Shown here one piece after another: positions 10,699-49,957 of a stretch of 49,957 bases of DNA. The first letter of the stretch is position 1. The number at the start of each line of letters is the position of its first letter. Made by a program: the position numbers and the translations under genes. Source of the stretch: Amoebophrya sp. A120 (lineage: Eukaryota; Protista; Dinoflagellata); assembly GCA_905178155.1 (NCBI GenBank), contig CAJINV010000008.1, forward strand, positions 4,404,577 through 4,454,533. Reading direction: 5' to 3'. A model generated the notes under the pieces. That model saw only the letters and a list, made by a program, of their open reading frames with translations, searched no databases and had not been told where the DNA came from.

Positions 10699-10702
10699 CA
10701 GC

Positions 10703-10759: not shown

Positions 10760-10760
10760 A

Positions 10761-22660: not shown

Positions 22661-22901
22661 CGGACACGCGAGCACACGGCGCCAGGCCTCTGTCCGAGGC
22701 GCTGGCGCTGTGCGGCAGGGGGCGCACGCGCTGCCATGTCGTGCAGATCTGCGCACAGCAGCAGCACTACCTTGGCTTGCGTGTCGCGCGCCCTCACTTG
22801 CTGCTCGCGCAAGTGGGACTCATTGATTTGTTGAGCGCGGCTTGCGGCCACGCCCCAACTGGGGCGCGGGTCGCGTGGCGGAGTGCGGTAACGCGCGTCG
22901 T

Positions 22902-23466
22902 CATTGGAGTGCACCTGCTTGCCAGCACATCCAACAAAGACCTCCCGGGCGTGCAGCTCGGCTTGCGCCGCAGCACAGCCCGGGAAAGCGTTTCCGAAAA
23001 CTCTCGTGCGCGCCTTCACTGGAGTGCACCTGCGTGCCAGCGCCTCCAGATCCGACCTCCCGGGCGTGCACCTCGGCTTTCGCCGCAGCACCACCCGGGA
23101 GTGCGTGGCAGAGTATGGCCGGCGCGTCTTCACTGGAGTGCACCTGCGTGCCAGCACCTCCAGCTTAGACCTCCAAGGCGTGCACCTCAGCTCTCGCTGC
23201 AGCACCACCCCGGAGTGCGTCGCATACATCTGCCGCCTCGCGCGCCTTCACTGGAGTGCACCTGCTTGCCAGCACCTCCAGATCCGACCTCCCGGGCGTG
23301 CACCTCGGCTTTTGCCGCAGCACCGCCCGGGAGTGCGTGGCAGAGTGCGATCTGCTCGTCTTCGCTGGAGTGCACCTGCGTGCCAGCGCCTCCAGCTTAG
23401 ACCTCTAGGGCGTGCGCCTCAGCTTTCGCCGCAGCACCACCCCGGAGCGCGTCCCGCACATCTGCC
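22902..23466. repeat. ~115-bp tandem repeat, 5 units
   Basis: c(a/g)(c/t)tggagtgcacctgc at 22902, 23017, 23131, 23249 and 23363. Confidence 0.9.
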
Positions 23467-31486: not shown

Positions 31487-31627
31487 TTTAGAAGGTGGAT
31501 TTAGAAGGCAAAATAGAAGGCGAATTCAGAAGGAAAAATAGAAGGAAATTTAGAAACAAAAATAGAAGGGGAAAAATAGAAGGAAATTTAGAAACAAAAA
31601 TAGAAGGCCCTTCCATTTTTGTTTCTC
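31487..31627. repeat. ~12-bp TAGAAGG-core tandem repeat ending in a hairpin (copy at 40208-40348)
   Basis: aaaatagaagg/atttagaa units. agaaacaaaaatagaagg is followed by ccttccatttttgtttct. Confidence 0.8.
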
Positions 31628-32539
31628 GATCATGGCCCCAGGTGGTTGTTGGGTTGGGTTTTGTCTTCGGGGATTCCTATATGGATTTCGTCTGGAATTC
31701 CTTCTGGGGATCTGTCTATTTGGTTTGGGGTGTTTCTGACCGGGGCGTTGAGGCTCGTTCGAGAGAGTCGACTCGTGTCGAGGACACGACCGGCAATAAC
31801 ATGTTTTTCCCGATGCCGCTCTTCGAGTTCGCTCATACATTTTGCATTCTAGTGACACTTCATCCAGAATAAAATCGAATGGATCTATCCTGGAGGTGCA
31901 AAAAAACTATTCGAAAACTATGAAGATTCTCTATCGATTTCGATAACGGATTCGCAATCTAATCACCTATTCTCGCATTACAGATTCAAAATAAATCAGA
32001 AATAAAAATCGAAACCAAAAGCAGGAGGAGTCGATAATTAACTTCTGAAAATGACTTCTGGAAACAGGTGCGGATTGTCGATTTGATTCGTGGTTTCTCG
32101 TCCTGGGGGCTCGCGATCACAGGACTTCTGGTGAAAATCCTGGGAAATCGAGCTTTCCCCGACCTAACAGGACACTTCGATAGATGAAAATCTATCTGAT
32201 TCTATTCGAAAACCAATAAGAAATCAATCCGAATCACGATACTACTTTAGAATCAATAGGGTAAATCGATTCGACCGATAAATTCGTATTTTTAGTCGCG
32301 ATTCAGATATTCTAAAATCTATAAAGTCGATCCTATTTCTCTCCTCTATCCTGATTCCCGGTCAGAATCTCGATTCGATCGGGATTCGATAAAAAAAATA
32401 AATGAAATTATCTAAAACCCACTTCTGATTCTCGATCAGATTCCGCCTCGACTCGATGGAAAGTGAAAAGATAAACCCTAATTATGATTCCGAATCTTCG
32501 AAGATGGTGTTCAGCGCGCGCCAATCACCATCAATTTAC

Positions 32540-32930
32540 TTGATTCCGATACCCGATTTCCTCGATGGATTTCGATAAAGGAATAAATATATCTAGGATG
32601 ATTCGACTCGGATTCCCATTGGGATTCTCGAGAATCAAAATAAGAATGAATCTAATCGATTCCGATTCTCGATGGGGTTCACGAGAAACAAATAAAAGAA
32701 TAAACTCTACCTATCTCGATTCTGATTCGAATTCCGGATGGGATTTCGATAAAAGGAAACAAATGGGCTCTGATTCCGAGTCGATTCCCGATGGGATCCG
32801 ATTCGGGATAGAAAAATAGAAATCAATTCCCGATGGGATTCACAATAAACAAAGAAAGGAATAAATCTAATCTATTTCGATTCTGATCCGAATTCCGATG
32901 GGATTCGATCAAGAATAAATAAAATCTATC
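32540..32930. repeat. Degenerate ~55-60-bp tandem repeat (copy at 41261-41651)
   Basis: Recurrent gattc...cgatgggatt...aataaa...tcta units. Confidence 0.6.
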
Positions 32931-34028
32931 AGAATACCTCCTAGATAGGGCGAAAACCTAAAATATCATTACTCGAAATATTGCATGACAGATTCGATAT
33001 TTTTTTTTCTATGCCTGAGATCCGACCGAGATTACGATTACGAATAGAAAAAGGAAAATGAACACAACTAAAAAGTCCGATAGTTAGGGTGTGCAATCGC
33101 TTCTCAATTCGATTCGATGTTTTTTCTTCAACAATCCCTCCCGGGATGCGAAATAAATTCTTGAGTTCAGGCGCCTGTCAAAATGGAAAAGTGTTCATCT
33201 TCGTCGTGATTGATCCATTGATTTTTTTCATTAGAAATCAATCCGAATTCGTTCGATTTTCGTTGTTCTTTTCTCGTTCGATTTCAGAAGTGAAGTCAGG
33301 TATTTTGTCCGATTTCCATGGTGTTTCGATCTAAAATTTTCATCTAGAAAGTGTGTGAAAATTTTAATCATTTTTGGAAAAGATTTCTTGTTTCATTTTC
33401 GAGCGATCCTCCATTGTCGATTTGATTGATCCCCAAAGCAGAACCTACCGGATCGATTTCGTTTGAATCGCGATCCGGCTTTTGATGTGTGTATCAAGGC
33501 CTCTCTTCTGCTTGGGGAGTCTATCAATGTCGACATCTGGTGGGCTCGATTTTAGGTATAGAAGGATAAAATTTCTAAAATTATACATGTGGTTTTTGCT
33601 TTTCTTCATCATCCTATGAAAATATAAAGAAAAGTAGTTACCTCTATGCAGGTTCTGGTGAGTTCTGGTCTTTTCGAAAAAAATGATCTTGAAGGAAATC
33701 GCATGGCAATCTTGAAAAGAAAAAAAATCACAAATCATACATCTAAATCTTACAAGTGATCAAAATACGCATGCTCTTCTCCTTCTAGTCTGTTCGTTTC
33801 TTCTGTTTCCCCGATGACAGTGCCGATCCGATCGCGACGAATGCCTCCGAGCTATCGGATCCGGATTGCCGTCGGTTTTGGGTTCTTTTTCAGTAGTGAA
33901 AGTCTTTGAAAGTAGTCTAGTTTCCATATGGTTTTTCGCCTCTCTTTTGCATTCATTCCGGGGCGAAAATTAGTCATAGTATAGGCTAGATCTAGGGCAT
34001 TCTAATCGTAATTGCGGTGCTAGTAGGC

Positions 34029-37000
34029 CTACGCAGTCACTTCAGTTTCCTCATCTTCCCCCACCCGAATGTGGCTAATCAGGATCTGGTGGTCGATTCC
34101 CCGTCGGGTTCCTTTGATTTCCAGCGTCATGGAGGGCGGGCAGCAGAAGAACTCCTTCGTGGCCGGTTGCAGTTGGTCCGGGCGCTTTTCGGTGGTTGGT
34201 TTGTTCTTCAGTGGTCCCCGATTGGCATCCTGGGCCTCTTTGTTCAGGACGATGTAATCAACAGCAAAACCGGTCTTGTCATAGGTGCAGAAAGTCCAGC
34301 TTCGTTTCCCGTGCGTCACCTGAAGTGCCTTATTCTCGGTCCCCAGCAGTTTCTGGATACTGGCGGTTTCCTGGCGGGATGTAGATGGGGTTTCGCGGTT
34401 GTGCCGACCGTGCAGGCCGTAGATCGATCGGTCGATCACTCTGTTGAAGTCGCCGACGAGGATCCGCTTTCCCGGGCCGGCGAGCCACTGGCGCAGGTTC
34501 AGGTCCCAGGCCTGGGCCTGCTTGATGCGGCGCAGCTCCTCCATCGCGTTCACGCTGTACACATTCCCGAAGGTGTGCTCGCCCCCGACAACAATTTCCT
34601 GGAAGCGACCCTCATGTTGCACTTCGGACTCGAATCGGGTCGCGCCAAAGTATTCGTGTGGGAGGTCTCTGCGGGCGAGGGCAGCAGTGGACGAATAGCC
34701 GATCTTGGACACGCTCGGGCGCAGGTAGATCGTGTAATCGGAATCCAGTGCATTGAGCGCGTCGCGGGCTTTCGTTTCCAGCGATGGGGAGACTTTGGTC
34801 TCTTGCAAAAAAATCAGGTGGGGCTTCGTCTTCAGAATTTCTTCCAGGTCAAGCAGCCTCGGGCCGCTTTCGATCGAAGCAAACAGTCCATCGAGATTGT
34901 AGGAGACGATCACGATTTCCCCCGGCGGGAGGATTTCCGGCTGGCGACGCAACAGGGGCGGGCGGGCGGGCCACTCGCGGTCGAGCGTTCCCAGCTTCAC
35001 GAGTTCCTTTACGCGCTTCGAAACTTCGCCGGGAGTCAGGGCGGCAGTCAGGTATGCCAGGATCGCAGGCTCCGTAAGCGGGAGGGCACGAACCATCGTG
35101 ATCGCCTGAGGTTGCCCGAAGCGGATTCTGCGGCCGAGCAGGCAGCCAAGCACGACCGAGTTGGCATTCCGATGCTGGACGACGAAAATCCGGGGCAGAA
35201 ACTTCATTTCGTATTTGGACCGATCGGGTTTCAAGCGGATCACCATGTCGCCGGCAATTAGGTCCTTGTTGACGGTTTTCTGGGCTTCGCGTTTCACGCT
35301 CCGGCCGTGGTTGAAGATGCGGCTCGCAACAGCTTCGAAGTCGGTTTCTCGGCGTTTCTTGATCGCGAGCGAAACCTCATCGAGCAGATCCCCCTCGACA
35401 GTTGTGGAGAAAACAGCTTCGTTGGCGGCGATCGGCGCTGCAGCACCCCAGTGCCGTTCGACCAGAGATGCACCGGCATAGCTGCCCCGCGGTTGGATTC
35501 CGAGGAGGTAGCCAGCACGGCGGACATGGTCGGACCAGTTGGAAGGCAGGAACGCCATCGCATCTTCTTCCTGTGCTTCGGCTTCTTCGGCTGCTTGTTT
35601 CTTCCCTTTCGGGCCGCGCTTCACGTTGATCTTTTTCTTCTCGGCCACCAGTTTCATATCCGGGTCGTCGAGGACAACAAACAAAAACTCGCCGTCCATC
35701 GTGTTTCGTCGCTCCAGTCGGAAACTCGGTGGGGCCAGGGCGTGTAGCAGGCGGATCAGGAAGTTGAGAAGGTGGTGAGGGTGTTCGACCATCCAGTTTC
35801 CGGACGCGAGGTAGTGCGGGCTCTTCCAGGTCTTGACCTCGTGCAGGGGGTCGATTTTCTGGATGAGCGCGTTGAGGGTGTCCAGAAATAGACGCCCGAA
35901 ATGCGACCCGTTGTCGCATCGGATGTAGGAATACAGTGTGAAAGTTGCCAACATCAAGCGGAAGACGCAGTCGGCGGCCGTGGCTGCCGTCGCGTCCGTC
36001 GTCGGCTCCGCCCATGTCAGCTCGCTCCGTCCGTCGGTGGCCGTGAAGATGCTGCTGAACTCGTCACCGGAAGCAAGGCCACAGATGTAATCGATAAACA
36101 GCACCTGTCCCCGGTGCCTGAACAGCTCCAACCGTGGTTGCAGTCGCACTGAGCTCGGGCCTTGCTGTGCGTAGGGGCTGAGGCTGCAGTAGATGCATAA
36201 GGATACGATCTTGGCACAGAGGTCCAGCAATCCGCCCTCGACAAAGAAGCCTTTTCGCAGTGTTAGGTGGTAGAGGATGCCTTTCCGTCCGTGCGAAACC
36301 GCATGGATCGCACTGATCACAGCAACGGCGATGCTGGTATGGTCATAGGTCTGACCCTCGAACACAAATTCTTCAGGTTCCACAAGAGTGGGGAGCAGGA
36401 TCTTCCAGCCGTGGAGCGGGACTCGGAACTGCAGGACGTCGCCGCAGAGTCGGTAGGACGGGAGTCGCTCCAGCATCGCCATCGCCTTATTCCGTTTCGG
36501 GCGGAGGCCATGCTGCTTCGCAACCGCGAGCAGATGGGCGATCTGTTCCTCTTCTTCCTCGGATCGGGCGACAGCCTCGAAGGCAGCAAACTCCAGGACG
36601 AACTGGCGCTTCTGGGTCTCCGTTAGAACTTTCTTGAAATTGGGCTCCAGGTGCAGGTGGGCGATCAGCTTCCGCGCGAACAAGAGGTAGATCGTGTTCG
36701 GCCTCCGTTTCTCGAGAAAACTGTCCCCGACCACCAGAAACATCAGAGCACCGCCCCACCGGCGGATCTTTCCTTCCATGATGTTTCCTTCATCGTCTCG
36801 CGCGACCCGGATCTCGACGAACCGCGTCGCATTCTCGGCGGTATAGGTTTCGTCTTGCCCTTCGCCGACGAGAATGTGGATGGTGGACCAGAGCCACTCG
36901 GTCGAACTCGCGGGGAAGATAACTCTTTCGAGTTCCGTCGCGGTTTTCCAAAGGATGGAGTCCGCCTGGGCATCTTCGTCAGGCAGTTCGTCCCCGGGCG

Positions 37001-39314
37001 TCGATACTACAATCTCCGAGGCGTCGACAGTTCCCAGGCTGTCAAGGAGTGCGTCGAGTTCCTTCGCGCCTTTCTTCGGCGGCCCCATCTCGGGCGGCTC
37101 TGCTTGAATCTCGACCGGATTCTGTCCGTACTCCACTTCGACCGACGGGGACGCATTGGCAGGCCCGCGATCGCAAAAACATTGGAAAAGGAAATAGTTC
37201 TTAGAGTCGAAGATCACCCTTGCAGTCGGGCAGGACGGGTGCTCGTCGTCGTACAGTCTGGCGCCGCGTGGGAGGTGCATGCTCCGCGAGAACCAGACCG
37301 ACTCTGCGTCCAGTTCCGCACGGGGTGGCAGGATTTTATACTCTCGCCATGTTTTGCTAATAGGGTGGGATAGGTCGTGGCCGAGCATCTGGCGGATCAG
37401 TCGGTAGGCCCGCTCAGGCGGCCCGGCCTTTTTGTTTCGGTTCGTGAACCCATATCGAAGCCACCGGTCACCACAGGGTGGGAGGATGTACTTCGGGCGG
37501 AGGGTCACGACAAGATTGTTGCCCCGGACGTCGTCCTTCCGGCGGCAGTGGATGTGGAAAGCCCATTCGGGAAGCCGGAGCGGGACGACCTTCTCCTTGC
37601 TGTCGTCGTCCGGATTCAGCAATTGTTCTTCATCCTCCGGGGGGAGAAGATGCTGGTCCGCGTCCGGGCTTGCCGCGGGGGCGTTGGCGTCCTCCATGAG
37701 AACATCTTCATCATCAAAAATATCATAAATGCGGTCTGTTTCATCGTCTTCGTTTCCCTCTTCGGTACCTGTTTCGCCGTGTTTGCAGACGTTCCGCCCG
37801 GTGGGGCTTGCAGTGACTTCGTCGGCCAGGGCGGCAGCAGCGATCGCAACTTCTTCCGCCGCTTCCTCTGGGGATGCGACAGGGGCGACGTGAGCTTCCT
37901 CGTCCTCTTCGCGGGTGGCTGCGGGTCGGGTCTGCTTCGGCTTCGGCGCTGTTGCCGGGGGCGAAGGGTCGGACTCCTCCGATTCGACGACCGGAAACCC
38001 GGACAGCAACTCCTTCCAGACATCCGCACGCCAGTTGATGGGCCACGTTACAGCCTCGAAGAGTCTATTTACTCCGACGCAGTCCACCACAATCCGCCCC
38101 AGTAGCGACTTTTTCCGTTTTGCCAAGAACATGCTGGATATCAGTGACGGGGCCCCGGTCTGGGCGGCTTTCTTGAACCAGGGCTCGATAAACCCCTCGG
38201 CAATAGCTTCCTCGATCAAAAACTTCATAATGTGATCCAGCACGCCGGGCAGGCTGAAACGCCGCGAGACACCAGCGGCGGCCCGCGGGTTGATCGGGTG
38301 GAAGGCCTTCGCGATTCGGACCGTCGGGAAAGGCTGGCCCGGGGCCCAGAGGGCCGCGCGGAGGACGCAGCAAATCTTAATGAAGCAGCAGCGGAGCTCG
38401 AGCGGCATCTCAACGGGGAGCGTATTCAGGAGTGTAGTGCAGATCAGTTGGTGGAAGTCGCGGTCGGACAGTTTTTCCTGGGCTGCCTCCTTCCGCTTGG
38501 TAATTTCTGCGTCGATCTGCTCTTGGGTCGCGTTTCCACTGATCGCGTTTCTGACCTTCGTATCGGGGCCCGGATCTGCGACCTGTTTCTCTTGGTTGGG
38601 TGCAGAACCGACCTGGTGGAGCCGACAGCGCGCATGTTTGATCTGTTCTCCCGAAACGACGTCGCGAAGGACCACGCGGGGCTTGACAGTTTTCTTATGT
38701 TTTTCCAGTAAGGTAACTTCAAACCGGACCCCTTCCTCGAGTTCCGCGGGCGTCGCAGTGATCGGGGCGCCGGGGATCGACACCATCGGCGCAAACGAAA
38801 CATCGACCGAAACTGCTTGCGGTACCGGGAACAGGGTGCTACAGTCGATCCGGACGACATGCTCCGACGGCACGAATGGCTCCAATACCGATGGGTCCAC
38901 GGTCCAATACTCGGCGTCGGCGGACGGATCCGCCGGTGGCAGGCTGGCTAGCAAAAGTATTTCTTCCAGGTCCGGGTCCTCCGGGATCGGGGCGCCGTCA
39001 AAACGCTGAAACAGGTCCTTGACTTTCTCTTTCCATTCTTCGTGGTTCGCCTCGACGCCATCGGGCTTTGCTTCAGTGCCGGATCGGGATCCAATGTCTT
39101 CGAGGTTGCTGGACGACCCAACGCGGTGCACCCGGTAACAGAGGCGGCCGGAGAGTGCGGAATGAATTTCCGAAGCCATCGACGATAGGGAGCGCTCCGT
39201 CCTGACATCCTGGGAAGACGTGATCAGCTCCCGGATACCGGTGGAGCTGCAATCGAAGAAAAGGATAAAGGGCACCGAAAGCGGAATCTTTGGTAAGATT
39301 TCCCGGACAAAGTG
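34029..39314 (-). CDS. 5'-truncated duplicate of the retroelement polyprotein (end of RNase H, RT fingers, integrase, AP endonuclease)
   Basis: Same translation as the last ~1750 aa of 42750..49607. Cut at the N. Confidence 0.7.
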   Translation of the reverse strand, partial: HFVREILPKIPLSVPFILFFDCSSTGIRELITSSQDVRTERSLSSMASEIHSALSGRLCYRVHRVGSSSNLEDIGSRSGTEAKPDGVEANHEEWKEKVKDLFQRFDGAPIPEDPDLEEILLLASLPPADPSADAEYWTVDPSVLEPFVPSEHVVRIDCSTLFPVPQAVSVDVSFAPMVSIPGAPITATPAELEEGVRFEVTLLEKHKKTVKPRVVLRDVVSGEQIKHARCRLHQVGSAPNQEKQVADPGPDTKVRNAISGNATQEQIDAEITKRKEAAQEKLSDRDFHQLICTTLLNTLPVEMPLELRCCFIKICCVLRAALWAPGQPFPTVRIAKAFHPINPRAAAGVSRRFSLPGVLDHIMKFLIEEAIAEGFIEPWFKKAAQTGAPSLISSMFLAKRKKSLLGRIVVDCVGVNRLFEAVTWPINWRADVWKELLSGFPVVESEESDPSPPATAPKPKQTRPAATREEDEEAHVAPVASPEEAAEEVAIAAAALADEVTASPTGRNVCKHGETGTEEGNEDDETDRIYDIFDDEDVLMEDANAPAASPDADQHLLPPEDEEQLLNPDDDSKEKVVPLRLPEWAFHIHCRRKDDVRGNNLVVTLRPKYILPPCGDRWLRYGFTNRNKKAGPPERAYRLIRQMLGHDLSHPISKTWREYKILPPRAELDAESVWFSRSMHLPRGARLYDDEHPSCPTARVIFDSKNYFLFQCFCDRGPANASPSVEVEYGQNPVEIQAEPPEMGPPKKGAKELDALLDSLGTVDASEIVVSTPGDELPDEDAQADSILWKTATELERVIFPASSTEWLWSTIHILVGEGQDETYTAENATRFVEIRVARDDEGNIMEGKIRRWGGALMFLVVGDSFLEKRRPNTIYLLFARKLIAHLHLEPNFKKVLTETQKRQFVLEFAAFEAVARSEEEEEQIAHLLAVAKQHGLRPKRNKAMAMLERLPSYRLCGDVLQFRVPLHGWKILLPTLVEPEEFVFEGQTYDHTSIAVAVISAIHAVSHGRKGILYHLTLRKGFFVEGGLLDLCAKIVSLCIYCSLSPYAQQGPSSVRLQPRLELFRHRGQVLFIDYICGLASGDEFSSIFTATDGRSELTWAEPTTDATAATAADCVFRLMLATFTLYSYIRCDNGSHFGRLFLDTLNALIQKIDPLHEVKTWKSPHYLASGNWMVEHPHHLLNFLIRLLHALAPPSFRLERRNTMDGEFLFVVLDDPDMKLVAEKKKINVKRGPKGKKQAAEEAEAQEEDAMAFLPSNWSDHVRRAGYLLGIQPRGSYAGASLVERHWGAAAPIAANEAVFSTTVEGDLLDEVSLAIKKRRETDFEAVASRIFNHGRSVKREAQKTVNKDLIAGDMVIRLKPDRSKYEMKFLPRIFVVQHRNANSVVLGCLLGRRIRFGQPQAITMVRALPLTEPAILAYLTAALTPGEVSKRVKELVKLGTLDREWPARPPLLRRQPEILPPGEIVIVSYNLDGLFASIESGPRLLDLEEILKTKPHLIFLQETKVSPSLETKARDALNALDSDYTIYLRPSVSKIGYSSTAALARRDLPHEYFGATRFESEVQHEGRFQEIVVGGEHTFGNVYSVNAMEELRRIKQAQAWDLNLRQWLAGPGKRILVGDFNRVIDRSIYGLHGRHNRETPSTSRQETASIQKLLGTENKALQVTHGKRSWTFCTYDKTGFAVDYIVLNKEAQDANRGPLKNKPTTEKRPDQLQPATKEFFCCPPSMTLEIKGTRRGIDHQILISHIRVGEDEETEVTA

Positions 39315-39315
39315 N

Positions 39316-42300
39316 AGAGGCCTCCTTGGGGGGCCTAGTTAGCTCGGGATTGCATGAAATCCAGGGGGGGTGATCCGGAGGCCATCCGGGCCGCCATTGT
39401 GGCCCACCAAGGGCTGCCCCAAAGGCCTCCGAAAGCGGCCCCAATTCAGTTGGAGGGGCGTGGGGCCGCGCAGCTGGCTAAAAAATGGCTAATTTTTTTC
39501 TGATTTTTGAAAACTCCGCGCGGCGAGGTAGCCGGTCGGGCCTCTCGTTTGCCGGTTGCCCGGCCTCCGCCCATTCCGGAGCCCGCGGCCATTGCCCTTG
39601 GCCCCGGGCTTCATCGTGTCAGCTTCGGCCCCCCCTTGCATGGATGGGCCGCGCCCTTTTTTGTTGCTCTGGTTTGCCGGGTATGGTTGGGCATTTGGGC
39701 CGCCCCGCGTAGTTCGGTGATTCAGGGCATCGGCCGTCTGGTTTTTGCATATTTCCGCGCTTTCTGTGGTTTTGCATGGTTTCGGGCCTTATGATATTCG
39801 ACAGCGGGATAGGGACGAAAATTGTAGTCGTGGCAGCCGCCATGAGCAGCAGTTTTCGTCTCTTTTGTTCTGTCTGATGTAAGCTCCTATCTGTATTGCT
39901 TTCTATCTCGGCCTTCGGTGTTTGTTGCTCTGTTGTGTTTCATTTGCCCTACGGAAGAGGATCCACGTTCGTGCACATGTCGCCTGCTATCTTCAGTTTT
40001 GGAAATGGACAGGTTCCGGACCTGTCCGTTTCCAAAACTGCGGCACTCGACCACTTTTCGCCTCATGGATATCTTCTAAATCTTCTTCTAAATCTGCTTA
40101 CAAGGGATTTCCTTAGGGAAATCAGTGTACTGCAGATTTAGAAGAAGGTGAAGAAGGTGTCCATCAGGCGAACATGTTGGTCGAATCAGAAAAAAGATAG
40201 TAGGCGATTTAGAAGGTGGATTTAGAAGGCAAAATAGAAGGCGAATTCAGAAGGAAAAATAGAAGGAAATTTAGAAACAAAAATAGAAGGGGAAAAATAG
40301 AAGGAAATTTAGAAACAAAAATAGAAGGCCCTTCCATTTTTGTTTCTCGATCATGGCCCCAGGTGGTTGTTGGGTTGGGTTTTGTCTTCGGGGATTCCTA
40401 TATGGATTTCGTCTGGAATTCCTTCTGGGGATCTGTCTATTTGGTTTGGGGTGTTTCTGACCGGGGCGTTGAGGCTCGTTCGAGAGAGTCGACTCGTGTC
40501 GAGGACACGACCGGCAATAACATGTTTTTCCCGATGCCGCTCTTCGAGTTCGCTCATACATTTTGCATTCTAGTGACACTTCATCCAGAATAAAATCGAA
40601 TGGATCTATCCTGGAGGTGCAAAAAAACTATTCGAAAACTATGAAGATTCTCTATCGATTTCGATAACGGATTCGCAATCTAATCACCTATTCTCGCATT
40701 ACAGATTCAAAATAAATCAGAAATAAAAATCGAAACCAAAAGCAGGAGGAGTCGATAATTAACTTCTGAAAATGACTTCTGGAAACAGGTGCGGATTGTC
40801 GATTTGATTCGTGGTTTCTCGTCCTGGGGGCTCGCGATCACAGGACTTCTGGTGAAAATCCTGGGAAATCGAGCTTTCCCCGACCTAACAGGACACTTCG
40901 ATAGATGAAAATCTATCTGATTCTATTCGAAAACCAATAAGAAATCAATCCGAATCACGATACTACTTTAGAATCAATAGGGTAAATCGATTCGACCGAT
41001 AAATTCGTATTTTTAGTCGCGATTCAGATATTCTAAAATCTATAAAGTCGATCCTATTTCTCTCCTCTATCCTGATTCCCGGTCAGAATCTCGATTCGAT
41101 CGGGATTCGATAAAAAAAATAAATGAAATTATCTAAAACCCACTTCTGATTCTCGATCAGATTCCGCCTCGACTCGATGGAAAGTGAAAAGATAAACCCT
41201 AATTATGATTCCGAATCTTCGAAGATGGTGTTCAGCGCGCGCCAATCACCATCAATTTACTTGATTCCGATACCCGATTTCCTCGATGGATTTCGATAAA
41301 GGAATAAATATATCTAGGATGATTCGACTCGGATTCCCATTGGGATTCTCGAGAATCAAAATAAGAATGAATCTAATCGATTCCGATTCTCGATGGGGTT
41401 CACGAGAAACAAATAAAAGAATAAACTCTACCTATCTCGATTCTGATTCGAATTCCGGATGGGATTTCGATAAAAGGAAACAAATGGGCTCTGATTCCGA
41501 GTCGATTCCCGATGGGATCCGATTCGGGATAGAAAAATAGAAATCAATTCCCGATGGGATTCACAATAAACAAAGAAAGGAATAAATCTAATCTATTTCG
41601 ATTCTGATCCGAATTCCGATGGGATTCGATCAAGAATAAATAAAATCTATCAGAATACCTCCTAGATAGGGCGAAAACCTAAAATATCATTACTCGAAAT
41701 ATTGCATGACAGATTCGATATTTTTTTTTCTATGCCTGAGATCCGACCGAGATTACGATTACGAATAGAAAAAGGAAAATGAACACAACTAAAAAGTCCG
41801 ATAGTTAGGGTGTGCAATCGCTTCTCAATTCGATTCGATGTTTTTTCTTCAACAATCCCTCCCGGGATGCGAAATAAATTCTTGAGTTCAGGCGCCTGTC
41901 AAAATGGAAAAGTGTTCATCTTCGTCGTGATTGATCCATTGATTTTTTTCATTAGAAATCAATCCGAATTCGTTCGATTTTCGTTGTTCTTTTCTCGTTC
42001 GATTTCAGAAGTGAAGTCAGGTATTTTGTCCGATTTCCATGGTGTTTCGATCTAAAATTTTCATCTAGAAAGTGTGTGAAAATTTTAATCATTTTTGGAA
42101 AAGATTTCTTGTTTCATTTTCGAGCGATCCTCCATTGTCGATTTGATTGATCCCCAAAGCAGAACCTACCGGATCGATTTCGTTTGAATCGCGATCCGGC
42201 TTTTGATGTGTGTATCAAGGCCTCTCTTCTGCTTGGGGAGTCTATCAATGTCGACATCTGGTGGGCTCGATTTTAGGTATAGAAGGATAAAATTTCTAAA

Positions 42301-45300
42301 ATTATACATGTGGTTTTTGCTTTTCTTCATCATCCTATGAAAATATAAAGAAAAGTAGTTACCTCTATGCAGGTTCTGGTGAGTTCTGGTCTTTTCGAAA
42401 AAAATGATCTTGAAGGAAATCGCATGGCAATCTTGAAAAGAAAAAAAATCACAAATCATACATCTAAATCTTACAAGTGATCAAAATACGCATGCTCTTC
42501 TCCTTCTAGTCTGTTCGTTTCTTCTGTTTCCCCGATGACAGTGCCGATCCGATCGCGACGAATGCCTCCGAGCTATCGGATCCGGATTGCCGTCGGTTTT
42601 GGGTTCTTTTTCAGTAGTGAAAGTCTTTGAAAGTAGTCTAGTTTCCATATGGTTTTTCGCCTCTCTTTTGCATTCATTCCGGGGCGAAAATTAGTCATAG
42701 TATAGGCTAGATCTAGGGCATTCTAATCGTAATTGCGGTGCTAGTAGGCCTACGCAGTCACTTCAGTTTCCTCATCTTCCCCCACCCGAATGTGGCTAAT
42801 CAGGATCTGGTGGTCGATTCCCCGTCGGGTTCCTTTGATTTCCAGCGTCATGGAGGGCGGGCAGCAGAAGAACTCCTTCGTGGCCGGTTGCAGTTGGTCC
42901 GGGCGCTTTTCGGTGGTTGGTTTGTTCTTCAGTGGTCCCCGATTGGCATCCTGGGCCTCTTTGTTCAGGACGATGTAATCAACAGCAAAACCGGTCTTGT
43001 CATAGGTGCAGAAAGTCCAGCTTCGTTTCCCGTGCGTCACCTGAAGTGCCTTATTCTCGGTCCCCAGCAGTTTCTGGATACTGGCGGTTTCCTGGCGGGA
43101 TGTAGATGGGGTTTCGCGGTTGTGCCGACCGTGCAGGCCGTAGATCGATCGGTCGATCACTCTGTTGAAGTCGCCGACGAGGATCCGCTTTCCCGGGCCG
43201 GCGAGCCACTGGCGCAGGTTCAGGTCCCAGGCCTGGGCCTGCTTGATGCGGCGCAGCTCCTCCATCGCGTTCACGCTGTACACATTCCCGAAGGTGTGCT
43301 CGCCCCCGACAACAATTTCCTGGAAGCGACCCTCATGTTGCACTTCGGACTCGAATCGGGTCGCGCCAAAGTATTCGTGTGGGAGGTCTCTGCGGGCGAG
43401 GGCAGCAGTGGACGAATAGCCGATCTTGGACACGCTCGGGCGCAGGTAGATCGTGTAATCGGAATCCAGTGCATTGAGCGCGTCGCGGGCTTTCGTTTCC
43501 AGCGATGGGGAGACTTTGGTCTCTTGCAAAAAAATCAGGTGGGGCTTCGTCTTCAGAATTTCTTCCAGGTCAAGCAGCCTCGGGCCGCTTTCGATCGAAG
43601 CAAACAGTCCATCGAGATTGTAGGAGACGATCACGATTTCCCCCGGCGGGAGGATTTCCGGCTGGCGACGCAACAGGGGCGGGCGGGCGGGCCACTCGCG
43701 GTCGAGCGTTCCCAGCTTCACGAGTTCCTTTACGCGCTTCGAAACTTCGCCGGGAGTCAGGGCGGCAGTCAGGTATGCCAGGATCGCAGGCTCCGTAAGC
43801 GGGAGGGCACGAACCATCGTGATCGCCTGAGGTTGCCCGAAGCGGATTCTGCGGCCGAGCAGGCAGCCAAGCACGACCGAGTTGGCATTCCGATGCTGGA
43901 CGACGAAAATCCGGGGCAGAAACTTCATTTCGTATTTGGACCGATCGGGTTTCAAGCGGATCACCATGTCGCCGGCAATTAGGTCCTTGTTGACGGTTTT
44001 CTGGGCTTCGCGTTTCACGCTCCGGCCGTGGTTGAAGATGCGGCTCGCAACAGCTTCGAAGTCGGTTTCTCGGCGTTTCTTGATCGCGAGCGAAACCTCA
44101 TCGAGCAGATCCCCCTCGACAGTTGTGGAGAAAACAGCTTCGTTGGCGGCGATCGGCGCTGCAGCACCCCAGTGCCGTTCGACCAGAGATGCACCGGCAT
44201 AGCTGCCCCGCGGTTGGATTCCGAGGAGGTAGCCAGCACGGCGGACATGGTCGGACCAGTTGGAAGGCAGGAACGCCATCGCATCTTCTTCCTGTGCTTC
44301 GGCTTCTTCGGCTGCTTGTTTCTTCCCTTTCGGGCCGCGCTTCACGTTGATCTTTTTCTTCTCGGCCACCAGTTTCATATCCGGGTCGTCGAGGACAACA
44401 AACAAAAACTCGCCGTCCATCGTGTTTCGTCGCTCCAGTCGGAAACTCGGTGGGGCCAGGGCGTGTAGCAGGCGGATCAGGAAGTTGAGAAGGTGGTGAG
44501 GGTGTTCGACCATCCAGTTTCCGGACGCGAGGTAGTGCGGGCTCTTCCAGGTCTTGACCTCGTGCAGGGGGTCGATTTTCTGGATGAGCGCGTTGAGGGT
44601 GTCCAGAAATAGACGCCCGAAATGCGACCCGTTGTCGCATCGGATGTAGGAATACAGTGTGAAAGTTGCCAACATCAAGCGGAAGACGCAGTCGGCGGCC
44701 GTGGCTGCCGTCGCGTCCGTCGTCGGCTCCGCCCATGTCAGCTCGCTCCGTCCGTCGGTGGCCGTGAAGATGCTGCTGAACTCGTCACCGGAAGCAAGGC
44801 CACAGATGTAATCGATAAACAGCACCTGTCCCCGGTGCCTGAACAGCTCCAACCGTGGTTGCAGTCGCACTGAGCTCGGGCCTTGCTGTGCGTAGGGGCT
44901 GAGGCTGCAGTAGATGCATAAGGATACGATCTTGGCACAGAGGTCCAGCAATCCGCCCTCGACAAAGAAGCCTTTTCGCAGTGTTAGGTGGTAGAGGATG
45001 CCTTTCCGTCCGTGCGAAACCGCATGGATCGCACTGATCACAGCAACGGCGATGCTGGTATGGTCATAGGTCTGACCCTCGAACACAAATTCTTCAGGTT
45101 CCACAAGAGTGGGGAGCAGGATCTTCCAGCCGTGGAGCGGGACTCGGAACTGCAGGACGTCGCCGCAGAGTCGGTAGGACGGGAGTCGCTCCAGCATCGC
45201 CATCGCCTTATTCCGTTTCGGGCGGAGGCCATGCTGCTTCGCAACCGCGAGCAGATGGGCGATCTGTTCCTCTTCTTCCTCGGATCGGGCGACAGCCTCG

Positions 45301-48035
45301 AAGGCAGCAAACTCCAGGACGAACTGGCGCTTCTGGGTCTCCGTTAGAACTTTCTTGAAATTGGGCTCCAGGTGCAGGTGGGCGATCAGCTTCCGCGCGA
45401 ACAAGAGGTAGATCGTGTTCGGCCTCCGTTTCTCGAGAAAACTGTCCCCGACCACCAGAAACATCAGAGCACCGCCCCACCGGCGGATCTTTCCTTCCAT
45501 GATGTTTCCTTCATCGTCTCGCGCGACCCGGATCTCGACGAACCGCGTCGCATTCTCGGCGGTATAGGTTTCGTCTTGCCCTTCGCCGACGAGAATGTGG
45601 ATGGTGGACCAGAGCCACTCGGTCGAACTCGCGGGGAAGATAACTCTTTCGAGTTCCGTCGCGGTTTTCCAAAGGATGGAGTCCGCCTGGGCATCTTCGT
45701 CAGGCAGTTCGTCCCCGGGCGTCGATACTACAATCTCCGAGGCGTCGACAGTTCCCAGGCTGTCAAGGAGTGCGTCGAGTTCCTTCGCGCCTTTCTTCGG
45801 CGGCCCCATCTCGGGCGGCTCTGCTTGAATCTCGACCGGATTCTGTCCGTACTCCACTTCGACCGACGGGGACGCATTGGCAGGCCCGCGATCGCAAAAA
45901 CATTGGAAAAGGAAATAGTTCTTAGAGTCGAAGATCACCCTTGCAGTCGGGCAGGACGGGTGCTCGTCGTCGTACAGTCTGGCGCCGCGTGGGAGGTGCA
46001 TGCTCCGCGAGAACCAGACCGACTCTGCGTCCAGTTCCGCACGGGGTGGCAGGATTTTATACTCTCGCCATGTTTTGCTAATAGGGTGGGATAGGTCGTG
46101 GCCGAGCATCTGGCGGATCAGTCGGTAGGCCCGCTCAGGCGGCCCGGCCTTTTTGTTTCGGTTCGTGAACCCATATCGAAGCCACCGGTCACCACAGGGT
46201 GGGAGGATGTACTTCGGGCGGAGGGTCACGACAAGATTGTTGCCCCGGACGTCGTCCTTCCGGCGGCAGTGGATGTGGAAAGCCCATTCGGGAAGCCGGA
46301 GCGGGACGACCTTCTCCTTGCTGTCGTCGTCCGGATTCAGCAATTGTTCTTCATCCTCCGGGGGGAGAAGATGCTGGTCCGCGTCCGGGCTTGCCGCGGG
46401 GGCGTTGGCGTCCTCCATGAGAACATCTTCATCATCAAAAATATCATAAATGCGGTCTGTTTCATCGTCTTCGTTTCCCTCTTCGGTACCTGTTTCGCCG
46501 TGTTTGCAGACGTTCCGCCCGGTGGGGCTTGCAGTGACTTCGTCGGCCAGGGCGGCAGCAGCGATCGCAACTTCTTCCGCCGCTTCCTCTGGGGATGCGA
46601 CAGGGGCGACGTGAGCTTCCTCGTCCTCTTCGCGGGTGGCTGCGGGTCGGGTCTGCTTCGGCTTCGGCGCTGTTGCCGGGGGCGAAGGGTCGGACTCCTC
46701 CGATTCGACGACCGGAAACCCGGACAGCAACTCCTTCCAGACATCCGCACGCCAGTTGATGGGCCACGTTACAGCCTCGAAGAGTCTATTTACTCCGACG
46801 CAGTCCACCACAATCCGCCCCAGTAGCGACTTTTTCCGTTTTGCCAAGAACATGCTGGATATCAGTGACGGGGCCCCGGTCTGGGCGGCTTTCTTGAACC
46901 AGGGCTCGATAAACCCCTCGGCAATAGCTTCCTCGATCAAAAACTTCATAATGTGATCCAGCACGCCGGGCAGGCTGAAACGCCGCGAGACACCAGCGGC
47001 GGCCCGCGGGTTGATCGGGTGGAAGGCCTTCGCGATTCGGACCGTCGGGAAAGGCTGGCCCGGGGCCCAGAGGGCCGCGCGGAGGACGCAGCAAATCTTA
47101 ATGAAGCAGCAGCGGAGCTCGAGCGGCATCTCAACGGGGAGCGTATTCAGGAGTGTAGTGCAGATCAGTTGGTGGAAGTCGCGGTCGGACAGTTTTTCCT
47201 GGGCTGCCTCCTTCCGCTTGGTAATTTCTGCGTCGATCTGCTCTTGGGTCGCGTTTCCACTGATCGCGTTTCTGACCTTCGTATCGGGGCCCGGATCTGC
47301 GACCTGTTTCTCTTGGTTGGGTGCAGAACCGACCTGGTGGAGCCGACAGCGCGCATGTTTGATCTGTTCTCCCGAAACGACGTCGCGAAGGACCACGCGG
47401 GGCTTGACAGTTTTCTTATGTTTTTCCAGTAAGGTAACTTCAAACCGGACCCCTTCCTCGAGTTCCGCGGGCGTCGCAGTGATCGGGGCGCCGGGGATCG
47501 ACACCATCGGCGCAAACGAAACATCGACCGAAACTGCTTGCGGTACCGGGAACAGGGTGCTACAGTCGATCCGGACGACATGCTCCGACGGCACGAATGG
47601 CTCCAATACCGATGGGTCCACGGTCCAATACTCGGCGTCGGCGGACGGATCCGCCGGTGGCAGGCTGGCTAGCAAAAGTATTTCTTCCAGGTCCGGGTCC
47701 TCCGGGATCGGGGCGCCGTCAAAACGCTGAAACAGGTCCTTGACTTTCTCTTTCCATTCTTCGTGGTTCGCCTCGACGCCATCGGGCTTTGCTTCAGTGC
47801 CGGATCGGGATCCAATGTCTTCGAGGTTGCTGGACGACCCAACGCGGTGCACCCGGTAACAGAGGCGGCCGGAGAGTGCGGAATGAATTTCCGAAGCCAT
47901 CGACGATAGGGAGCGCTCCGTCCTGACATCCTGGGAAGACGTGATCAGCTCCCGGATACCGGTGGAGCTGCAATCGAAGAAAAGGATAAAGGGCACCGAA
48001 AGCGGAATCTTTGGTAAGATTTCCCGGACGAAGTG
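39316..48035. repeat. Second copy of the 8720-bp block
   Basis: Matches 30595-39314. Confidence 0.95.
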
Positions 48036-49618
48036 GAGCAGTCCCAGCAGTTCCATCCGACCCGACGAATTCGCGTTCCGCTCCTGCTCTTCCTCGGAAA
48101 ATCTCTTGTGGCCTGCAAAGATAACAGCATCCCGGCCGCGCTGCCGCTGGATACCGAAGACCGACATCCCCGGGCGGCAGCTGTCGATCCCGAAACGTGG
48201 AATCCCGCCGGTCGTTTTCCAGTTGACGGCGGCGAGCTCATCAAGCTCCGATAGCAGCACCGCCTTCCGCAGCTCCGCCTTACAGGAATCGAAGTACTGC
48301 TTTGCAGTTTCGTCGGCCGACAGCTTGGCAATAGGTATCTTCCCAAGTAGGTACTTAGAGAAGTGATCCAGAATCTCGGGCCAATTGCGGATGGCGTTCG
48401 ACATGTAGTTCGCAACACAAACGAACGACTTCAGCTCCTTCACGCTTCTGGGCATCGGCAGGGCATCGAATGCGGCGACCTTCTCTGGATCCGGGCGGCG
48501 ACCGCGGGTCTTGTAGCACAGCTCCCATCCTAGGATGTAGACCTTCGCCTTCACCAGGATTTTCGACAGAGAGAACTTGAAGCCGGAAACGCAGGCCCGG
48601 ACCAAGTGCTGTGCGAGTCGAATCAGGAGGGCAGCAGGTGAGTCGGCCCGGCTGTTGCAATCGTCCATGTAGGGGACGGAGTATCTCGATCCGGAGGGCT
48701 GGCCACTGATCAGGGAGGCGATTAGGTCGTCTTCGGTACTGGCGTCGTGGTTGCAGTAGTCTCGGTAGGTGCAGGCTGTTGCGGCGGTTCCGTACTGGTT
48801 CTGCAAGTCGGCGGCCGCTTGGTGGCTGCTCATCTGTGTGATGGTGTCCAGCTGGGCCGGCTGAAGCGCCGGATCTGTCAGCGAACCAAACACCAGAGCC
48901 ACCCACATCGAGTACAAAGCGGGGGCAAAGATGAGCCCCAAAAACATGCGGAGGGGGGAAAAAACTTTATTTCCATACCCTAGGGCCAAGAATCCTTTCA
49001 ACATTTCATGTAGGAGGAACTGCAGGAACCCCTTGGCATGATCAAGGCAAAGCCAAGAGCCATGCTTCATGGTGTCGAGCCAGGAGTATGGTCCACCCAC
49101 CCAGTTGCTGAAGCGAAGAACCCCAGCGACGATGAGGCCCACGAGCTGCACGACCAGAACATACTGGAGCCATCCACTAATAGGGTCGGTTTCCAGCTTC
49201 GGATTTCTCAGGTCGTCGGAGGTTTCCACATCCTGCACCCAGTTCCAAAGCTCTTCATTCTCGGCGCTGACCATCGAGGAGCGGAAGGTCGGGATCTTTG
49301 GTCTCTCATCTTCGTCGCTGCACGCTGTTTCGACAAAAGAGTACTGCGACAGTCGCTTGACGTTCTTTCCCTCCTCGAAGTTCTGCAGTCTGTTCATCCG
49401 GATAAAACTTTCTTCGACCGTTCCCCAGGTGACGGATTTCTTCGACAGTTCCCCGTCGTGAGGAGCAGACTGGTGATCGGCGATGTTACCACTCGGGCCG
49501 GCACTGGTGGCAGCAGGATCGGGGCCAAGACCGGGCGGAGCGGCGATCATCTTCGCCTTCGGGGTTCGCTCGTTGTTAATCCAGTGCGGGCAGCGTGGTA
49601 CCATCAAAGGTTCTCTTC
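39790..49618 (-). mobile_element. Telomere-abutting retroelement: pol ORF plus long AT-rich 3' non-coding region. 3' boundary approximate.
   Basis: Pol domains as above. Composition changes near 39790 (31070 in copy 1). No paired LTRs are visible. Confidence 0.6.
42750..49607 (-). CDS. pol: Ty3/gypsy-type pol polyprotein, 5'-truncated: RT palm/thumb - RNase H - displaced RT fingers - integrase - EEP/AP endonuclease
   Basis: RT: CLDHAKGFLQ (~49020-49049), RMFLGLIFAPALY, YMDD (48660-48671), PDPEKVAAF..P..P.SVKELKSF...ANY. RNase H: IDSCRPG, MELLGL, FILFFD. Integrase: H-x3-H...C-x2-C, FIDY, CDNGSHF, MVE. EEP: SYNLDG, LQETK, EGRF, NVY, GDFN, WTF, VDYI, IDH. Confidence 0.93.
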   Translation of the reverse strand: MMVPRCPHWINNERTPKAKMIAAPPGLGPDPAATSAGPSGNIADHQSAPHDGELSKKSVTWGTVEESFIRMNRLQNFEEGKNVKRLSQYSFVETACSDEDERPKIPTFRSSMVSAENEELWNWVQDVETSDDLRNPKLETDPISGWLQYVLVVQLVGLIVAGVLRFSNWVGGPYSWLDTMKHGSWLCLDHAKGFLQFLLHEMLKGFLALGYGNKVFSPLRMFLGLIFAPALYSMWVALVFGSLTDPALQPAQLDTITQMSSHQAAADLQNQYGTAATACTYRDYCNHDASTEDDLIASLISGQPSGSRYSVPYMDDCNSRADSPAALLIRLAQHLVRACVSGFKFSLSKILVKAKVYILGWELCYKTRGRRPDPEKVAAFDALPMPRSVKELKSFVCVANYMSNAIRNWPEILDHFSKYLLGKIPIAKLSADETAKQYFDSCKAELRKAVLLSELDELAAVNWKTTGGIPRFGIDSCRPGMSVFGIQRQRGRDAVIFAGHKRFSEEEQERNANSSGRMELLGLLHFVREILPKIPLSVPFILFFDCSSTGIRELITSSQDVRTERSLSSMASEIHSALSGRLCYRVHRVGSSSNLEDIGSRSGTEAKPDGVEANHEEWKEKVKDLFQRFDGAPIPEDPDLEEILLLASLPPADPSADAEYWTVDPSVLEPFVPSEHVVRIDCSTLFPVPQAVSVDVSFAPMVSIPGAPITATPAELEEGVRFEVTLLEKHKKTVKPRVVLRDVVSGEQIKHARCRLHQVGSAPNQEKQVADPGPDTKVRNAISGNATQEQIDAEITKRKEAAQEKLSDRDFHQLICTTLLNTLPVEMPLELRCCFIKICCVLRAALWAPGQPFPTVRIAKAFHPINPRAAAGVSRRFSLPGVLDHIMKFLIEEAIAEGFIEPWFKKAAQTGAPSLISSMFLAKRKKSLLGRIVVDCVGVNRLFEAVTWPINWRADVWKELLSGFPVVESEESDPSPPATAPKPKQTRPAATREEDEEAHVAPVASPEEAAEEVAIAAAALADEVTASPTGRNVCKHGETGTEEGNEDDETDRIYDIFDDEDVLMEDANAPAASPDADQHLLPPEDEEQLLNPDDDSKEKVVPLRLPEWAFHIHCRRKDDVRGNNLVVTLRPKYILPPCGDRWLRYGFTNRNKKAGPPERAYRLIRQMLGHDLSHPISKTWREYKILPPRAELDAESVWFSRSMHLPRGARLYDDEHPSCPTARVIFDSKNYFLFQCFCDRGPANASPSVEVEYGQNPVEIQAEPPEMGPPKKGAKELDALLDSLGTVDASEIVVSTPGDELPDEDAQADSILWKTATELERVIFPASSTEWLWSTIHILVGEGQDETYTAENATRFVEIRVARDDEGNIMEGKIRRWGGALMFLVVGDSFLEKRRPNTIYLLFARKLIAHLHLEPNFKKVLTETQKRQFVLEFAAFEAVARSEEEEEQIAHLLAVAKQHGLRPKRNKAMAMLERLPSYRLCGDVLQFRVPLHGWKILLPTLVEPEEFVFEGQTYDHTSIAVAVISAIHAVSHGRKGILYHLTLRKGFFVEGGLLDLCAKIVSLCIYCSLSPYAQQGPSSVRLQPRLELFRHRGQVLFIDYICGLASGDEFSSIFTATDGRSELTWAEPTTDATAATAADCVFRLMLATFTLYSYIRCDNGSHFGRLFLDTLNALIQKIDPLHEVKTWKSPHYLASGNWMVEHPHHLLNFLIRLLHALAPPSFRLERRNTMDGEFLFVVLDDPDMKLVAEKKKINVKRGPKGKKQAAEEAEAQEEDAMAFLPSNWSDHVRRAGYLLGIQPRGSYAGASLVERHWGAAAPIAANEAVFSTTVEGDLLDEVSLAIKKRRETDFEAVASRIFNHGRSVKREAQKTVNKDLIAGDMVIRLKPDRSKYEMKFLPRIFVVQHRNANSVVLGCLLGRRIRFGQPQAITMVRALPLTEPAILAYLTAALTPGEVSKRVKELVKLGTLDREWPARPPLLRRQPEILPPGEIVIVSYNLDGLFASIESGPRLLDLEEILKTKPHLIFLQETKVSPSLETKARDALNALDSDYTIYLRPSVSKIGYSSTAALARRDLPHEYFGATRFESEVQHEGRFQEIVVGGEHTFGNVYSVNAMEELRRIKQAQAWDLNLRQWLAGPGKRILVGDFNRVIDRSIYGLHGRHNRETPSTSRQETASIQKLLGTENKALQVTHGKRSWTFCTYDKTGFAVDYIVLNKEAQDANRGPLKNKPTTEKRPDQLQPATKEFFCCPPSMTLEIKGTRRGIDHQILISHIRVGEDEETEVTA

Positions 49619-49957
49619 TAGGGTTTAGGGTTTAGGGGTTTAGGGGTTTAGGGGTTTTGGGGTTTAGGGGTTTAGGGGTTTAGGGGTTTAGGGGTTTAGG
49701 GGTTTAGGGGTTTAGGGGTTTAGGGGTTTTGGGGTTTAGGGGTTTAGGGGTTTTGGGGTTTAGGGGTTTAGGGGTTTTAGGGTTTTGGGGTTTAGGGGTT
49801 TAGGGGTTTTGGGGTTTAGGGGTTTAGGGGTTTTGGGGTTTTCGGGTTTTGGGGTTTTGGGGTTTAGGGGTTTAGGGGTTTTGGGGTTTTGGGGTTTAGG
49901 GGTTTTGGGGTTTTGGGGTTTTGGGGTTTTGGGGTTTTGGGGTTTTGGGGTTTTGGG
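49619..49957 (+). repeat. Telomeric tract: two TTTAGGG-type units, then mixed TTTAGGGG/TTTTGGGG
   Basis: G-rich strand runs 5'->3' to the end of the sequence, the correct polarity for a right chromosome end. Confidence 0.95.

Follow-up and report, generated by a model that had tools for sequence, protein, structure and literature searches.

Long terminal repeat (LTR) retrotransposons of the Ty3/gypsy kind, the Metaviridae, are defined by a pol gene in which protease, reverse transcriptase (RT), RNase H and integrase (IN) follow one another in that order (PMC7879559). Some gypsy-like elements have greatly extended frames and have acquired further enzymes, among them a 3' exonuclease; examples are Burro and GYPSM1 of planarians and the LTR elements of bdelloids, to which DEDDy, GDSL or dUTPase domains have been added (PMC6431247, PMC5408684). 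No endonuclease/exonuclease/phosphatase (EEP) or APE domain and no split RT is named for these elements in the portions of the two papers available to us, and the bdelloid DEDDy nuclease is described there as a separate open reading frame (ORF) with a different fold. Here we analyze a stretch of 49,957 nucleotides, hereafter the window, from contig CAJINV010000008.1 of the dinoflagellate Amoebophrya sp. A120 (assembly GCA_905178155.1, positions 4,404,577 to 4,454,533). It contains a Ty3/gypsy-like element that carries an APE1-like EEP domain inside the polyprotein, behind IN, and in which the N-terminal fingers of the RT very probably lie behind RNase H.

Each of these features has a partial counterpart elsewhere. 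APE-clade non-LTR elements (LINE-1 and its kin) also join a nuclease of the EEP fold to an RT within one protein, with the endonuclease N-terminal, an RT of LINE type and no DDE integrase; in the A120 element, by contrast, the EEP domain is APE1-like and follows an HHCC/DDE IN, and the RT belongs to the LTR/retroviral type. Helentrons are reported to have a C-terminal AP endonuclease (PMC4067079), but they are rolling-circle DNA transposons with Rep and a PIF1 helicase encoded upstream of the endonuclease, whereas the nuclease here is preceded by a DDE integrase, an RT and RNase H, and Pfam detected no Rep or helicase domain in the window protein or in 13 relatives. The RNA-dependent RNA polymerases (RdRPs) of Birnaviridae and Permutotetraviridae are likewise right-hand polymerases whose motifs are out of canonical order (PMC4015915). 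What is shifted in those enzymes is palm motif C within one domain, whereas here ~130 fingers residues are found past RNase H or at the end of the polyprotein.

Results

One frame carries RT, RNase H, integrase and an EEP domain

The element is encoded by a single open frame on the minus strand (42750..49631; 2293 aa, no internal stop, stop codon at 42750-42752) that reads as a 5'-truncated Gag-Pol-type polyprotein. From the N-terminus, the domain order is RT palm and thumb, RNase H, a beta-rich segment, RT fingers, a spacer, IN, an SH3-like tail and the EEP domain, all on the minus strand. The RT (48252..49067) starts at motif A (D197) and continues through motif B, YMDD (D323/D324) and the thumb, with no N-terminal fingers ahead of motif A, and RNase H follows at 47796..48209 (D483, E527, D553). 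The spacer (45066..46721) consists of an acidic low-complexity linker and conserved blocks without an assigned function. It leads into IN (44397..45065), which has an HHCC module (H1536/H1540/C1572/C1575, from 45026) and a D,D(42)E core (D1607, D1666, E1709, with 42 residues between the second D and the E). The segment at 43797..43985 has conserved columns and no profile match; we take it to be the SH3-like C-terminal part of IN from its motif (DLIAGDMVIRL, at 43985) and its position. The APE1/ExoIII-like EEP domain (42789..43643) contains N2005, D2007, E2037, Y2118, N2121, D2154, N2156, D2218, D2273 and H2274, and its motifs are SYNLDG at 43625, LQETK at 43529, EGRF at 43334, NVYSVN at 43286, VGDFN at 43178, WTF at 43019, VDYI at 42983 and IDH at 42818.

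A sequence-only reading of the window had quoted these IN and EEP motifs and placed both domains in one pol protein at 42750..45030. Every one of the motifs was found in a single minus-strand frame and the domains are where it put them, but the frame is far longer than that interval, running from 49631 to 42750 and including RT and RNase H. The Pfam scan that it proposed gave a divided result: Exo_endo_phos matched the window protein above the curated cut-off (aa 2003-2224, E 4.5e-9), whereas rve missed it. RVT_1 also missed, leaving EEP as the only domain of the 2293-aa protein that Pfam recognizes.

The fusion recurs in relatives, some of them from Amoebophrya

A HMMER search of 1.84 billion representative proteins with the IN+EEP stretch recovered the family, returning 59 matches, including one with 100% identity to the window; three word-indexed homolog searches returned no relatives. 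In a hidden Markov model (HMM) scan that took in 60 proteins, 12 non-self proteins carried both IN and EEP domains. Six of these had been used to build the HMMs, and the other six (P0004, P0007, P0012, P0013, P0014 and P0052 in our numbering) had not. The possibility that the fusion exists only in the window copy therefore fails, and the proposal of a wider lineage holds. The relatives with both domains are 25-34% identical, and proteins with the same domain order at 25-35% identity come from EukProt, NCBI, ENA, JGI and Logan. A host name is given for 4 of the 20 best or longest matches looked up, and it is Amoebophrya in each case: Amoebophrya sp. AT5.2 for P0007, P0014 and P0015, and A25 for P0008. 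No loci of full-length relatives were found in the viral contigs or metagenome contigs searched. Two relatives carry the database label 'exonuclease III' alone.

The four longest members (5367-6191 aa) have common N-terminal blocks and, ahead of RT in all four, one shared Cys/His motif each and, at the level of a motif, a D[TS]G protease. With RT, RNase H and IN following in that order in the window, the family has the Metaviridae pol order. It is a lineage of giant Ty3/gypsy-like retrotransposons, likely of marine parasitic dinoflagellates.

These relatives also bear on whether the fusion, or the odd domain order, is an artefact of assembly or gene modelling or a one-off decayed chimera. The window does contain a probable scaffolding duplicate (see below), and two AT5 gene models are missing internal pieces. 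However, the same order is present in proteins that are only ~25-35% identical and come from five source sets, the frame is open through 2293 codons, and in sequencing run X1 a 1302-base contig spans the IN core and the SH3-like region while all 30 bins of the unit are covered. An artefact is thus very hard to credit.

A displaced RT fingers segment lies downstream of RNase H

A canonical RT is one colinear domain with motifs 0-2 ahead of motif A, an arrangement also seen in the 65 distinct RT regions from viral contigs that formed our reference set. In the window frame, the segment with motifs 0-2 lies instead at 46722..47117 (minus strand), after RNase H. A fingers profile gave one match per protein in 8/8 long members, the same eight from which it was built; the match was downstream of the palm in every case, and nothing homologous was found upstream of motif A, in contrast with the colinear RT of Metaviridae. 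The segment follows RNase H in seven of the eight. In P0012 it lies after EEP at the far C-terminus, separated from the palm/RNase H block by >1800 residues; by tblastn, this P0012 segment matched that of the window at E 1.6e-11. R932, R939 and N948 are invariant in all eight members, the last two falling opposite an Arg and an Asn that are themselves invariant among the references; this Arg is presumably the one that binds the incoming dNTP, like HIV-1 R72.

Comparison with the references places the segment at the canonical N-terminus. The family A-B profile matched 65/65 references and the C-thumb-RNase H profile 51/65, while the region upstream of motif A matched 0/65. The fingers profile scored 24 bits in L001 and L004, compared with 10.8 for the best shuffled control, and its alignment of 132 residues ended five residues ahead of motif A. 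Relative to MPFGL, the three profiles cover -172..-41, -36..+21 and +23..+230 of canonical Pol; they thus tile the canonical RT almost without gaps, but in the family they occur as 2-3-1. HHalign of the fingers segment against 11 reference RT N-termini gave 84.9% (E 6.4e-6, 125 colinear columns, score 40.2); the controls stayed lower, the best of 100 column shuffles scoring 18.7, a reversal 13.3 and the stretch ahead of motif A 10.2. The reference N-terminus profile itself matches Ty3 RT residues 48-146 and the corresponding parts of the RTs of cauliflower mosaic virus (CaMV), foamy virus and murine leukemia virus (MLV). ESM Atlas independently assigned the fingers segment to RVT_1 (23/30 matches, score 0.93). 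Single canonical N-termini used as phmmer queries reached at most 1.2 bits, with their best matches mostly within the displaced segment.

The remainder of the RT resembles LTR-type and retroviral enzymes. The best Foldseek matches of a model of RT plus RNase H were the RTs of foamy virus, CaMV, Ty3 and MLV (E 5.5e-7 to 4.5e-5), with RNase H ranking next, and the family IN and RT profiles scored highest on the five integrase-bearing gypsy-like references. In an unrooted quick tree of 7 family, 5 gypsy-like and 14 of 60 other viral reference rows, with no BEL, copia or retrovirus rows, the family formed one side of a branch with SH-aLRT 100 and joined among the gypsy-like rows on a very long stem. 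Taken together, these data make it very probable that the displaced segment is homologous to the canonical RT N-terminus, and they make its use in an active two-piece RT fairly likely.

The same data could be explained by an RT that stays a single chain, either because the fingers fold back in cis, as in a circular permutant, or because the segment is a remnant replaced by a hydrophobic helix upstream of motif A. In 7/8 members the fingers are 180-280 residues past the end of the RT-C/thumb/RNase H match, permuted palms are reported in birnavirus and permutotetravirus RdRPs (PMC4015915), and a hydrophobic 19-mer (Kyte-Doolittle 1.3-2.7) is found 34-71 residues before motif A in the eight members. 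P0012, however, has its fingers at the far C-terminus, behind IN and EEP, and a remnant would be expected to lose R932, R939 and N948, which are invariant in 8/8, the latter two matching the reference Arg and Asn. We therefore consider a single-chain RT unlikely. Because the fingers of P0012 are >1800 residues from the palm block, we favor release by the protease and non-covalent assembly over fold-back in cis.

Other parts of this region also vary or lack an assignment. A strongly hydrophobic, helix-length stretch occupies the usual place of the fingers in most long members (window ~49120-49180). The loop between RT motifs B and C differs in length (window 48671-48950), the span from motif A to YxDD being shortest in P0012 (73 residues), intermediate in the window (123) and longest in P0004, P0007 and P0015 (239-288). 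A conserved beta-rich segment without a family match (47247..47651, minus strand) precedes the fingers segment in the window and, by eye, in P0012. Its best ESM Atlas score was 0.77, with none higher; a dUTPase origin was considered and is unsupported.

The nuclease behind IN is of the APE1/ExoA kind

When a profile of the family IN+EEP region was compared with solved structures, its IN portion matched foamy-virus integrase (E 2.4e-9); Pfam rve gave weak, sub-cut-off matches in the relatives P0004 (E 0.004) and P0009 (E 0.007). The EEP portion of the profile, built from 11 IN+EEP sequences, matched APE1 at E 1.5e-32 and the ExoA-type entry 5cfe at 1.3e-26, compared with 1.3e-5 for the LINE-1 endonuclease and 1.7e-5 for E. 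coli ExoIII, and the window EEP as a single sequence matched APE1 at E 8.6e-7. Because the profile favors APE1/ExoA-type enzymes over the LINE-1 endonuclease, the nuclease belongs, as judged from sequence, with the cellular APE1/ExoA enzymes and retains an intact catalytic set. The profile and structure-database matches bear out the earlier suggestion of a cellular rather than a LINE-type enzyme.

The catalytic set of the EEP fold (N, D, E, Y, N, D-x-N, D, D-H) is complete in the window protein, on what we take to be the APE1 residue numbering. By pattern search, the G-D-x-N/S motif is present in 14/14 fused members and D-H in 13/14. Human and zebrafish APE1 and the ExoA-type exonuclease III share with the element the catalytic residues, the R-L-x-x-R-x-x-W-D helix and alignable pocket motifs, TFW and GWRLDY of APE1 corresponding to TFC and GFAVDY in the window. 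The element's domain differs from these enzymes in belonging to a retroelement polyprotein, in its longer branches and in having F or L at the APE1 pocket tryptophan.

In a quick EEP tree of 53 rows, built without LINE rows and with six short or duplicate rows left out, 35 stand-alone enzymes were split from 14 fused domains and 4 short proteins (SH-aLRT 94), and the fused rows had longer branches than the stand-alone enzymes. Because this branch parts fused from stand-alone rows, the tree is compatible with a single capture of EEP by the lineage. A comparison of substitution types, also proposed by the sequence-only reading, pointed to purifying selection: over one 450-base EEP stretch, the window copy and one collapsed run X1 contig of other copies differed at 26 sites, 20 synonymous and 6 non-synonymous (pN/pS 0.096; p 2e-8), the scorable stretch being set by a listing of 40 of the 340 differences.

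AP endonucleases do not recognize modified bases by themselves, which bears on the idea that the nuclease counters host base modification by finishing, once a host glycosylase has done its part, the removal of uracil or 5-hydroxymethyluracil (5hmU) from element DNA. Pfam found no glycosylase domain in the window protein or the 13 relatives scanned. All four host-named relatives are from Amoebophrya, and in the dinoflagellate Amphidinium carterae 5hmU is reported to be enriched on transposons and linked to silencing (PMC11572971), although the main text of that paper is silent on Amoebophrya and Syndiniales. On these grounds we regard a base-modification role as improbable.

The window copy is truncated and capped by telomere repeats

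A telomere tract (49616..49957, plus strand) of the 8-base units TTTAGGGG (x22) and TTTTGGGG (x16) caps the 5' end of the element. These units are unlike the TTTAGGG/TTTGGGG repeats reported for A120 (PMC7789003); the 7-base TTTAGGG is given as the usual dinoflagellate telomere unit in the sections of the two sources available to us (PMC7789003, PMC11453091). A run X1 contig departs from the window at 49615. Because this contig continues past that position with non-telomeric sequence, we read the window copy as 5'-truncated. Its gag and protease are missing, its broken end was probably healed by telomere addition, and it would not be capable of moving on its own.

The 3' 8720 bases of the element region are present a second time at 30595..39314 (minus strand), with 1 mismatch relative to 39316-48035; this duplicate includes an ORF at 34029-39338 and is joined at position 39315, the only N in the window. 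Exact-match contig depth was 19 inside versus 26 outside the duplicate in run X1 and 39 versus 45 in run X2, and no contig from either read set spans the N. The tandem duplicate is probably a scaffold-overlap assembly artefact; a real tandem array of this 8721-base repeat was weighed and judged less likely, though with an appreciable chance. Findings within 30595-39338 would then be duplicates of features of the element at 42750-49631. Contigs that are 2-6% divergent cover the coding region at ~3-4x the depth of exact-match contigs, a ratio that does not equal copy number; because the divergent contigs are the deeper ones, a few more copies exist. Run X3, whose RNA nature is only guessed, provided three short contigs, and three raw RNA runs under the same species label (X5, X6 and X7) contributed no real reads, which says nothing for or against expression. 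The stop codon region (34029-34032, equivalent to 42750-42753) is altered in a collapsed run X2 contig of other copies, and from this difference the C-terminus of the EEP frame may be longer in those copies.

Downstream of the frame is an AT-rich 3' non-coding region with hairpins, mostly unique to the window copy (39316..42749, minus strand). Two long hairpins and AT-rich repeats of 12, 25 and 38 bases are found at 39994-40184 (copy at 31273-31463), where Rfam gave sub-threshold matches only, and another copy jumps 724 bases, from 39506 to 40231. A repeated terminal segment at 29823..30790 (minus strand; inner end uncertain) may be the 3' LTR. Its boundary at 29823 is sharp, with TG at 29825-29826 on the plus strand, which is CA on the element strand. 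The loose-end consensus at this boundary (2 contigs, agreement 0.7) resembles, by eye only, the complement of a tRNA 3' end; there are no tRNA genes within the window. Pyrimidine runs of at least 12 on the plus strand are limited to 29860, 32336 and 33774. A C-rich telomere-like stub lies at 29036-29052, ~780 bases outside the 3' boundary, and further repeat edges occur at 29257 and 29294 in run contigs.

The position of this copy at a chromosome end could mean that, in the same architecture, EEP nicks undamaged target DNA in the manner of LINEs and steers insertion, perhaps to telomeres. The 5' end of the window copy is distal and telomere-capped, as is reported for Terminons (PMC6431247), and Helentrons have a C-terminal AP endonuclease as well (PMC4067079). 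Against this, IN retains HHCC and DDE, EEP is far nearer APE1 than the LINE-1 endonuclease and has pocket motifs alignable with APE1, and telomere repeats are absent where the 3' boundary falls at 29823; a single telomeric copy could also have arisen by breakage and healing of the chromosome. Terminons and telomeric Penelope-like elements combine a PLE-type RT with a 3' end bearing a hammerhead ribozyme and telomere repeats in reverse complement, whereas the element has an LTR-type RT, lacks such repeats at its 3' boundary and gave no ribozyme match (28000-42800, E up to 1). Target nicking is thus a rather unlikely role for EEP.

Other features of the window

The rest of the window contains several unrelated features. 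A direct repeat of ~857 bases (1-857 and 14651-15500; 96% identity, 14650 apart) flanks sequence with five long ORFs that were scanned, none of which gave a Pfam match to an RT or integrase family. Three related stretches of 130-500 bases (~68% identity) at 3265-5790 lie in long plus-strand frames without Pfam matches, which suggests repeated protein modules or a small gene array. A 693-codon plus-strand frame at 7305-9386 encodes a Laminin_G_3/concanavalin-like domain (E 8.7e-12). Short direct and inverted repeats at 9151-11732 (families D11-D15, I4 and I6-I8) are reminiscent of the inverted-repeat introner elements of Amoebophrya, and 21581-23466 holds two GC-rich degenerate tandem arrays with units of ~87 bases and 114/232 bases.

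Discussion

Our analyses narrowly favor a Ty3/gypsy-like polyprotein that carries an APE1-type nuclease behind IN and its RT fingers behind RNase H, with the RT working in two pieces and the nuclease serving in repair. The element would follow an LTR-type cycle like that of Ty3/gypsy elements (PMC7879559), with particle assembly, protease processing, tRNA-primed reverse transcription and DDE integration. During processing, the element's protease would cut the polyprotein and free the two RT pieces, and fingers and palm-thumb-RNase H would then pair non-covalently into one RT. EEP might repair new cDNA and integration gaps, acting on abasic sites and on 3' ends that are blocked or mispaired. 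Because EEP is APE1-like and tied to IN, we favor this repair role over target nicking or a 5hmU counter-measure, though on sequence grounds we hold the case for it to be evenly balanced.

Several observations weigh against this overall interpretation. The homology of the fingers is remote: just 2/65 references, a pair that is 94% identical, beat the best shuffled control, and L031 (9.5 bits), L025 and L002 were matched at the same place below the control maximum. The fingers profile matched nothing in PDB or Pfam, an AlphaFold model of the fingers was weak (pLDDT 58.7) and gave no fold match, and in an 850-aa AlphaFold model (aa 128-977, mean pLDDT 44.1) motifs A-B and the fingers were below 50. 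The test of purifying selection consists of the single 450-base stretch, and run X1 is possibly the window's own source. Among the AT5 gene models, P0014 is without the YxDD stretch and P0015 has EEP without the IN core. No LTR pair was seen in the window copy, whose 5' end is lost, and neither a primer-binding site nor a polypurine tract was demonstrated in it.

The element resembles Metaviridae in encoding protease, RT, RNase H and IN in that order in one polyprotein, with a gypsy-like RT and RNase H and an HHCC/DDE integrase. It differs from them in its displaced fingers, in the APE1-like EEP domain in frame after IN, in a length of 5.4-6.2 thousand residues and in the very long RT branch. 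Because the RT is not colinear, we describe the element as one that would work like Metaviridae and do not claim membership. The two features, EEP behind IN and displaced RT fingers, appear not to have been reported in print for an element of the Ty3/gypsy kind: no title or abstract opening described an LTR element whose IN is followed by EEP, or an LTR-type RT whose fingers are displaced, in a literature search that had subscription journals, bioRxiv supplements, Repbase and GyDB outside its range. In the parts available to us, the Amoebophrya genome paper treats LTR and non-LTR families in general terms only and one of its supplements makes no mention of gypsy, LTR, copia or telomer (PMC7789003), and the word gypsy is absent from the corresponding parts of a review of dinoflagellate genomics (PMC11453091).

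The family may represent an undescribed giant lineage of Ortervirales in Syndiniales, with the first naturally split RT, whose movable pieces would assemble after cleavage, and an APE1-type repair or proofreading nuclease on its IN; we give this fuller interpretation an even chance of being correct. One possible reason that such elements escape annotation is that Pfam RVT_1 and rve miss the window protein, and that two relatives are labelled 'exonuclease III'. If the two RT pieces form an active enzyme, they would reveal a place where the LTR-type RT fold is split in nature, would show where that fold can be cut and that the order of RT motifs is not fixed, and might be put to work in split-RT editing tools. 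In the usual view, LTR elements rely on the host for gap repair, and an APE1-like enzyme carried by the element would make that step directly testable in a group known for its modified DNA bases.

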